A stretch of DNA of 64,000 nucleotides, taken from the NCBI GenBank assembly GCA_000004985.1, contig GG738901.1; one strand, given 5' to 3'. The notes beneath the pieces are model-generated. The model worked only from the letters and a program-made list of their open reading frames with translations, did not search any database and was not told the DNA's origin. The first letter of the stretch is position 1. Each line of letters starts with the position of its first letter. Both the position numbers and the translations under genes were made by a program. Below, piece after piece: positions 6,678-53,346 of the stretch. Source of the stretch: Naegleria gruberi (taxonomy: Eukaryota).

Positions 6678-7086
6678 TTACAAGAGATGACATTTCTTCT
6701 TCTTTTCATCAGCTGAATTGTCATCAACCCAATCCTTAAACTTGTCTGGATTTCTGGCAATTCTTACAGCCGATTCAAAAACTTCCTTCACACCATATTG
6801 AGTTTTAGCACTACATTCATGATAACGATGAATCTTCCAATCCTTTCTCTTCTTTTCAGCTTCATCTTTTGTAATAGGTGGTCCATCCTTACTCTTTTGC
6901 ATTTCTGGAACTTCTCTCAAATCAACTTTTGTTCCAACTAATAGGATAGGGACCCCAGGAGCATAATGTGTAATTTCTGGAAGCCACCTCACTTGAATAT
7001 TATCAAAAGAGCTTCTGTGGACAATTGAAAAACAGAGAAGGAAAATATTTGTATCTGGATAAGAGAGAGGTCGTAAACGATCATAA
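6678..7086 (-). CDS. Rho-family small GTPase, last exon (YDRLRPLSYP...CHLL CAAX box)
   Basis: It encodes YDRLRPLSYPDTNIFLLCFSIV...WLPEITHYAPGVPILLVGTKVDLR...CHLL. The acceptor AG is at 7087-7088. The reading frame extends upstream of the ORF-track Met. Confidence 0.8.
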
Positions 7087-7274
7087 CTTTTTTTGTGTGA
7101 ATAAATTTCATTGGAAATTATGAGAGGACAACTTACTCTGAAATTGTGTGAGAATTATCATGTATGAATATAATATGTTGATAGATTTAAATATTTACCT
7201 TCCTAATAATATTGATTGATAATTGATGAAAATGATCAGTGATTAGAATATAAATTATATTGTAAATTACTTAC

Positions 7275-7360
7275 TTGTCCTGCTGTATCCCATAAATCTA
7301 TTGTTTGTACTTTAGAATCAACTACCATGTTTGTGCTGTAATTATCAAAGACAGTTGGCA
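7275..7360 (-). CDS. Rho-family small GTPase, exon 2 (VPTVFDNYS...LWDTAGQ)
   Basis: The acceptor CTTTAG is at 7361-7366 and the donor GTAAGT at 7269-7274. It encodes switch I/II, ending in the DTAGQ G3 box. Confidence 0.8.
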
Positions 7361-7532
7361 CTAAAGATTATTGATTATCCGAAATTACAAGACGAAACAT
7401 ATCAAGATCCAATCATAATAATAATAATAACAACATTCCAACAAGATAAATTTTGTATGATGACAATAATATTCGAAATTGATGACAATAACATGATATC
7501 AATCAACTCTTTCCAATACAAAAAAAACCTAC

Positions 7533-7632
7533 CGTAATCTTCAGGAAACTTATCCTCTACAAAACTAACCAGTAAACAAGTTTTTCCGACAGCACCATCT
7601 CCACAAACTACACATTTTACAGCCTTGTCCAT
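7533..7632 (-). CDS. Rho-family small GTPase, exon 1 ([22 protein letters not shown]-loop)
   Basis: The ATG is at 7632. The P-loop is GDGAVGKT. The donor is G|GTAGGT at 7527-7532. Intron 1 is about 172 nt. Confidence 0.8.
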
Positions 7633-52292: not shown

Positions 52293-52342
52293 GTATGTTA
52301 TTTTTTATTCTTTCAATGATTATTTAATATTATTTATAATAG

Positions 52343-52659: not shown

Positions 52660-52704
52660 GTACGTTCAACATTTCAATATTTTAATTTAACAAATTCTAA
52701 TCAG

Positions 52705-52838: not shown

Positions 52839-52885
52839 GTAAGTTTATTCTTTGGATTATTCATCATTACTGAACTCAAAACCAG

Positions 52886-53346
52886 AACTTTTCAACAGCA
52901 ATTATTACAATGAGAAGTGTGATGTCTACTCCTTCTCAATTGTCATGTGGGAATTATTCTTTGGAACTCGTTATTCATCCTTTGGAGGTGATGCCAATGA
53001 TCGATTCAAATTTTTACTCACAAGAGAACAAATTTTGGAACTTTCCACACTCGCAACCAGTTCAATTGCCTTTGTGTTGAAGAAGGTTGCTGAGGGAACA
53101 AGACTTCCACTCCCAAACAGTACATCTAGTCACCTCAAATGGATTAGAGCTTTCATGCCTGAACATTCCAGTAATGATGAACATTGTAAAGTTATTGTAA
53201 AGGTGGTAGAGAAGTATTTTACTCTGATGGTAGAATGTTGGGATAACGATCACAGCAAGCGTCCTGGATTCAGAGATATTATGTATAGATTGAAGGAAAT
53301 GGTGGATTTGCTTTATTTTGATGAGTGTACAGTGAGAACTTTGTAA
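52886..53346 (+). CDS. Receptor-like protein kinase, exon 5 (APE, C-lobe)
   Basis: It starts (AP)ELFNS..CDVYSFSIVMWELFFG and ends at a stop. Confidence 0.8.

Follow-up and report, generated by a model that had tools for sequence, protein, structure and literature searches.

Exons of a single nucleotide test the limits of the splicing machinery, and very few have been documented (APC11 and VPS55 in plants, CYP621A in Fusarium). In Arabidopsis APC11 a one-nucleotide exon lying between AG and GT is spliced accurately, and its authors proposed sequential removal of the two flanking introns, a recursive-splicing model being also mentioned (Guo and Liu 2015, PMC4674806). Land plants as a whole have kept the one-nucleotide micro-exons of their APC11 and VPS55 genes (PMC8831610), and a further one-nucleotide exon was reported from the CYP621A P450 genes of Fusarium (Nelson and Syed 2026, PMC12940212). 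The known examples share the form AG/N/GT, were missed by gene finders and came to light through a mismatch of frame or phase within a conserved motif (PMC4674806, PMC8831610, PMC12940212). Among somewhat larger micro-exons, a constitutive 4-bp exon is known from human MPC1 (PMC9929638), and adjacent micro-exons of 5 and 12 nt from rice (PMC8831610).

The locus considered here is a Rho/Rac-family GTPase gene of Naegleria gruberi NEG-M, on the minus strand of the window (the whole 64-kb stretch of DNA that was analyzed). We consider it highly probable that this gene is intact, and that the Glu and Asp codons of its switch II region are spread over two constitutive exons, GAAG and A, that are set off by three GT-AG introns. 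What is new is the prediction of a one-nucleotide exon from Heterolobosea, such exons as a class being known from plants and Fusarium, and a literature search returned no paper linking Naegleria with micro-exons. If the reading is correct, this would be the first one-nucleotide exon that we found reported outside plants and fungi, and an extreme form of the phenomenon, with tandem exons of 4 and 1 nt and three introns crowded into 188 nt, in a genome where introns are few (1.7 exons per gene; intron statistics from PMC8296547).

The resemblance to the plant cases is close in several respects. As in Arabidopsis APC11, the exon base is an A that lies between an AG acceptor and a GT donor, is essential for the frame and was missed by annotation; as in plant VPS55, the base is followed by a strong donor (GTRAGT there, GTAAGT here); and the stepwise removal of the flanking introns that was proposed for plant APC11 would apply to N. 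gruberi as well. However, the plant APC11 and VPS55 exons have been proven by cDNA, RNA-seq and mutagenesis, whereas the N. gruberi exon is predicted and seemingly confined to one lineage. Its flanking introns are 61 and 50 nt long, as compared with 333 nt upstream in Arabidopsis APC11, a second micro-exon (4 nt) is located only 61 nt upstream, and the gene belongs to an intron-poor heterolobosean amoeba.

The Fusarium CYP621A exon likewise corresponds to a phase mismatch in a conserved motif and to an AG/N/GT site inside an over-long 'intron', with short flanking introns typical of the genome and with support from a homologue that lacks these introns. It differs in being a G (AGGGT) found in 20 or more species and seen in SRA reads, while the N. 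gruberi exon is an A (AGAGT) deduced from the sequence of one species, and in lacking the accompanying 4-nt exon. The latter exon, GAAG, resembles that of human MPC1 in its length, its strong flanks and the constant need for its inclusion to keep the frame, and the presence of two neighboring micro-exons recalls the 5-nt and 12-nt pair of rice; unlike in MPC1 and rice, the N. gruberi pair totals only 5 nt and has a one-nucleotide member, and the genes and lineages are different.

A ratchet point is a zero-length exon, in which AG abuts GT and no base is left, inside a very long intron. Such points are said to have been described in the long introns of Drosophila, Ubx among them, by Hatton in 1998, Burnette in 2005 and Duff in 2015. 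The N. gruberi site shares with them a 3' splice site followed by a regenerated consensus donor (YYCAG, GTAAGT) and the sequential removal that would follow, but one coding base is retained rather than none, and the introns are of 50-61 nt rather than tens of kilobases. The site is thus not a recursive splice site or ratchet point, and the term 'recursive site', offered in the initial annotation, applies as an analogy only, while the AG/A/GT site that it described is present.

Gene structure

The gene extends from an ATG at 7632 to a stop codon at 6678. Exon 1 (7533..7632, 100 nt) encodes 33 residues and the first base of a Val codon; its N-terminus agrees with those of the orthologues, and its junction with exon 2 agrees with a transcript of a related species (L001, see below). 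It is followed by intron 1 (7361..7532, 172 nt, GTAGGT...TTTAG, phase 1), the position of which is common to N. gruberi, N. fowleri, Willaertia and a further relative represented by an ENA metagenome contig (L004). Exon 2 (7275..7360, 86 nt) ends in phase 0 with TGG GAT ACA GCA GGA CAA (LWDTAGQ). The last exon, exon 3 (6678..7086, 409 nt with its TAA stop at 6680-6678), begins with T TAT GAT CGT TTA CGA CCT (YDRLRP) and encodes a C-terminal CAAX box, CHLL.

Exons 2 and 3 are separated by a gap of 188 nt (7274-7087), which is divided in the preferred model into three introns of 72, 61 and 50 nt. Intron A (7203..7274) runs from GTAAGT to TATTAG, with its donor at 7274-7269. The 4-nt micro-exon GAAG (7199..7202), flanked by TATTAG and GTAAAT, would supply a Glu codon and the first base of an Asp codon. 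Intron B (7138..7198) runs from GTAAAT to TTTCAG and is followed by the one-nucleotide exon A (7137..7137), the predicted middle base of the Asp codon GAT, in the context TTTCAG/A/GTAAGT (7143-7131). Intron C (7087..7136) extends from GTAAGT to AAAAAAAG and interrupts the Asp codon in phase 2. The initial annotation had proposed the phase-0 end of exon 2 at LWDTAGQ with GTAAGT at 7269-7274, a 4-nt exon between TTAG and GTAAAT and a single A between TTTCAG and GTAAGT, and on the minus strand each of these positions proved accurate to the base.

The mature mRNA would then read GGA CAA/GAA G/A/T TAT GAT, encoding DTAGQEDYDRLRP, the predicted nucleotide sequence across the junction being CAAGAAGATTATGATCG (as a 26-mer, ACAGCAGGACAAGAAGATTATGATCG; in a shorter form, CAAGAAGATTATGA). 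With both small pieces the coding sequence is 600 nt long and specifies 199 aa, and its product matches Pfam Ras with an E-value of 2.4e-50. The product has the hallmarks of a Rho/Rac small GTPase, namely the P-loop GDGAVGKT, switch II DTAGQEDYDRLRP, TKxD, SAK and the C-terminal CAAX, and its best named database matches are Rho/Rac proteins. Joining exon 2 straight to exon 3 gives ...GGACAATTATGA, which is translated as ...DTAGQL followed by a stop, and use of GAAG and A restores QEDYDRLRP through CAA GAA GAT TAT (QEDY).

Uniqueness of the micro-exon route

The enumeration covered all paths from exon 2 to exon 3 with up to three introns, each of the GT-AG or GC-AG type and no shorter than 30 nt. 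Among the 94 paths that remain open to the native stop, a single one (7274-7203, 7198-7138 and 7136-7087) yields QEDYDRLRP, which bears out the claim of the initial annotation that GAAG and A offer the only way to restore this motif. The other open paths that keep DTAGQ and YDRLRP give QVRSY, QSNY, QVNY, QSKFY or QFY by way of weak donors, and no open path with QEDYDRLRP omits GAAG.

The base at 7137 thus has the sequence features of a one-nucleotide exon: it is a single base with a canonical AG acceptor immediately before it and a GT donor immediately after it, and it is needed for QEDYDRLRP, as judged against homologues without the interruption. Similarly, GAAG has the properties of a constitutive micro-exon (15 nt or shorter), having canonical flanks and being indispensable for the frame. 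Skipping of either GAAG or A would cause a frameshift into an early stop.

The probability of such an arrangement arising by chance was estimated for an ordered GA(A/G)GA split into up to three AG/x/GT pieces with introns of at least 30 nt; bare AG and GT sufficed in this test, whereas the real sites also have the extended consensus (GTAAGT, GTAAAT, TTTCAG). When the 188 nt were shuffled 200,000 times with their composition preserved, it appeared twice (about 1e-5). Among all slices of 188 nt taken from the window its frequency was 0.24%, a figure in which slices overlapping the real site are counted.

Comparison with orthologous genes

The best match of the predicted protein is a 199-aa protein from the Logan assembly of run SRR26109364 (90% identical), followed by proteins of N. 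fowleri (about 85%) and Willaertia magna (about 75%), and then by Rho/Rac proteins of eukaryotes in general. When the N. gruberi prediction was aligned with its homologues, the Logan, N. fowleri and Willaertia proteins among them, QEDYDRLRP proved invariant. The Logan contig, L001, is 974 nt long and intron-free, with an uninterrupted ORF of 600 nt. Its exon 1/exon 2 junction falls where predicted for N. gruberi, and together with the uninterrupted ORF this marks L001 as a spliced transcript from a related species. A deletion of four residues relative to the other three proteins is common to N. gruberi and L001, which makes the L001 species the nearest of the available relatives. Across the critical junction L001 reads GGTCAAGAAGATTATGATCG, base for base what is predicted for N. 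gruberi, GAAGAT included.

In the N. fowleri genomic locus the corresponding region is CAAGAAGA/GTAAGT...498 nt...AACAG/CTACGAT, with one intron in phase 2 of the Asp codon, and in L004 it is CAAGAAGA/GTAAGT...59 nt...AATAG/TTACGAT, in the same phase as intron C. Intron C is hence the older intron, shared with N. fowleri and L004. Because its position, phase and GTAAGT donor are those found in the relatives, the A at 7137 is the positional homologue of the base that closes exon 2 in N. fowleri and L004, and thus the last base of the ancestral exon 2. Willaertia has no intron at this position. The intron C acceptor is an AAG that follows an A-rich rather than a pyrimidine tract, and the orthologous acceptors are also A-rich (AAAACAG, GAAAATAG).

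In contrast to intron C, introns A and B are absent from all three orthologous genomic loci (N. fowleri, L004 and Willaertia), so that the micro-exons are not conserved in these orthologues and the support from comparison does not extend to the two additional introns themselves. Conservation is usual among the known one-nucleotide exons of plants (PMC8831610) and Fusarium (PMC12940212), but the definition does not require it. Comparison with orthologous Rho genes had been suggested as a check at the outset, and it came out in favor of the reading with a 4-nt and a 1-nt exon: exon 2 of N. fowleri and L004 ends in GAAGA/GTAAGT, Glu-Asp is kept in all aligned homologues, the L001 junction is identical, and intron C corresponds to the only intron that the relatives have there.

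Intron positions in the orthologous gene differ strongly among heteroloboseans (L002, 3001-4363; L003, 2001-2888; L004, 638-1477), and the phase-1 intron after EDY is the only one common to all four loci. L004 and Willaertia have further introns of their own (41-88 nt), and two introns of N. fowleri are long, at 253 and 498 nt. The varied positions suggest active intron turnover in heteroloboseans. A scan of JGI metagenomes for WDTAGQ followed by GTAAGT returned 13 contigs (L006-L018), all of them Rab genes of unrelated eukaryotes and none from a Naegleria relative. In these 13 Rab genes an intron in phase 0 immediately follows the Gln of WDTAGQ, as intron A does in N. gruberi, and introns seem to have occupied this position repeatedly in the Ras superfamily.

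Selective constraint and alternative explanations

One rival reading is that of a dead or unproductively spliced gene. The 188 nt would then be excised as a single intron, of a length close to the mean for the genome (203 bp, PMC8296547), or be retained, the outcome would be a truncated product of 63-74 aa or nonsense-mediated decay, and GAAG and A would be coincidental. The direct join does end in Gln-Leu and a stop, and neither a protein model nor a transcript fragment of N. gruberi was found for the gene. Nevertheless, dN/dS relative to L001 is 0.085 at a dS of 0.83, and low in both halves of the gene (0.056 for exons 1-2, 0.101 for exon 3), and exon 3 is open for 136 codons in a genome of 33% GC. 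When amino-acid changes were polarized with N. fowleri, seven fell on the N. gruberi branch and six on the L001 branch; evolution of the N. gruberi copy has accordingly not accelerated. These substitution patterns show that the gene has been under constraint, for which some way of restoring the reading frame is required. Moreover, the exact five bases that are missing occur in the right order between canonical flanks, which is hardly expected by chance (see above), and A/GTAAGT is homologous to the end of the ancestral exon. A dead gene is thus very unlikely.

A functional gene might also use another in-frame route that dispenses with the one-nucleotide exon. The enumeration left the QVRSY, QSNY, QSKFY and QFY paths open, and two introns suffice; for example, exon 2 extended by GTAA (donor GTAATT at 7270), followed by GAAG and then by a 112-nt intron (7198-7087), would give Q-V-R-S-Y with the junction ...CAAGTAAGAAGTTATGA. 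Such a route would replace the switch II Glu and Asp, which are invariant in every homologue aligned and are encoded by GAAGAT in L001. It would also depend on the weaker donors GTAATT, GTTGTC or GTCCTC, some of which overlap or adjoin a perfect GTAAGT, and would ignore TTTCAG/A/GTAAGT, whose donor is conserved; we therefore regard it as highly improbable. Less credible still is the loss of GAAGA through a sequencing or assembly error, or its compensation by RNA editing, a non-canonical acceptor or ribosomal frameshifting. The initial annotation had named an indel error and a non-canonical splice as alternatives, and no direct support for any explanation of this kind was found. A 502-nt contig (L005) from the unrelated ENA metagenome assembly ERR1078381 is identical to the window over the last 17 nt of intron A, GAAG, intron B, the single A and intron C, and the agreement continues in exon 3, where there is one synonymous C/T difference. 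An assembly error between GAAG and exon 3 is accordingly unlikely; L005 stops short of exon 2 and of the first 55 nt of intron A, so that the exon 2/intron A boundary is that of one assembly. Canonical sites explain the whole arrangement without any special mechanism, which makes a non-canonical splice superfluous, and a shifted AA acceptor would give QEGY instead of QEDY.

Proposed splicing of the micro-exons

Splicing through GAAG and A in N. gruberi, as we infer it from the sequence, would make use of the canonical signals that flank both exons, the A/GTAAGT donor being homologous to the ancestral one. Only a single base separates the intron B acceptor from the intron C donor, and their simultaneous occupation is not plausible; stepwise removal of introns B and C would follow from this, most likely one after the other by intron definition. 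The order of removal may be either, both being chemically possible. If intron B were removed first, AGA/GTAAGT would be rebuilt, which is the exon context that the donor already has: GAAG and intron B both end in AG, and hence positions -3 to -1 of the donor read AGA before and after the removal of intron B. If intron C were removed first, TTTCAG/ATTATG would be left.

L004 has introns of 41 nt, and a minimum intron length of 30 nt was used by workers on N. fowleri (PMC8296547), so it is plausible that introns of 50-72 nt fit the group. A rough scan of the window for ORF continuity suggested other putative introns of 40-64 nt with GTAAGT donors. Candidates of 45-64 nt in other genes of the window have GTAAGT, GTATGT or GTACGT donors; three of them lie within 600 nt on the plus strand (52293-52342, 52660-52704 and 52839-52898), and others are located on the minus strand (47606-47560, 16265-16202 and 11450-11405).

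Several other types of element were considered for the region. A fold of 7290-7070 gave no signal of an RNA structure that would bring the splice sites together (z = +0.6), and a 16-nt imperfect inverted repeat around the one-nucleotide exon was indistinguishable from chance. No Rfam match was obtained on either strand of the region, and no meaningful ORF crosses it on the plus strand. In a stwintron, as described in fungi by Flipphi and colleagues, an internal intron interrupts the donor, branch point or acceptor of an outer intron. The present arrangement is of another kind, with three introns that each have a complete GT...AG and with the GTAAGT at 7136-7131 uninterrupted.

Origin of introns A and B

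As the N. fowleri and L004 loci show, the predicted one-nucleotide exon is the last base of an old exon, cut off by an intron that is absent from these relatives. Two further introns in the N. gruberi lineage would interrupt the end of the old exon 2, one after CAA and the other after GAAG, and the last base of that exon would thereby be stranded as a one-nucleotide exon in front of the old GTAAGT donor. Given the distribution of introns among the loci compared, two gains in the N. gruberi lineage would be the most parsimonious explanation, with loss in the other lineages as the alternative, and the origin of introns A and B is apparently recent and lineage-specific.

Tandem duplication or intron copying was considered as a source, a similarity between introns A and B and between A and C having been hinted at by local alignments against simple shuffles. 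Against dinucleotide-preserving shuffles and control introns, the similarities among introns A, B and C were not significant (z of 1.4, 0.1 and -0.1), and this source was discarded. As regards introner-type repeats, the 64-kb window contains no other copies of introns A, B or C.

A more specific scenario, which we consider rather doubtful, is that the N. gruberi lineage acquired two new spliceosomal introns at distances of 5 nt and 1 nt ahead of a 5' splice site that was already there, after the split from N. fowleri and possibly very recently. If this were true, intron gain could be targeted to the vicinity of an active splice site, for instance through reverse splicing where the spliceosome assembles, and the exons GAAG and A would be a by-product of such targeted gain. 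The locus would then provide a dated and tractable natural example of how new introns arise.

Annotation status and additional observations

The predicted 199-aa protein is absent from a collection of 15 billion proteins by exact look-up, and so are the products of ten alternative models (read-through, direct join, QVRSY, QSNY, QVNY, QSKFY, QFY and starts in exon 3 only). A junction-centered protein search found no N. gruberi fragment and returned only other Rho/Rac proteins, of at most 71% identity. The public protein set of N. gruberi appears to lack a conserved Rho GTPase; the probable reason is that exons of 4 nt and 1 nt are beyond what gene finders can handle, and similar cases could be hidden in other protist genomes. 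By contrast, four long ORFs elsewhere in the window correspond exactly to XP_ proteins of N. gruberi (NAEGRDRAFT_72989, _72994, _52565 and _59331), all from one 309-kb scaffold, which identifies the window as NEG-M.

Two further features were observed around the gene. Contig L005 matches the window perfectly up to ...CAATATGGT (window position about 6792, minus strand), apart from the C/T difference given above, and its last approximately 70 nt (L005 431-502) are fully divergent; the end of the contig could be chimeric, or another strain could carry a structural variant here. Approximately 400-450 nt upstream of the Rho start codon there is a candidate 87-nt intron, GAG/GTAAGT...TTTTCTTAG/C (8098-8012, minus strand), which could be a 5'UTR intron of the Rho gene or part of something else.
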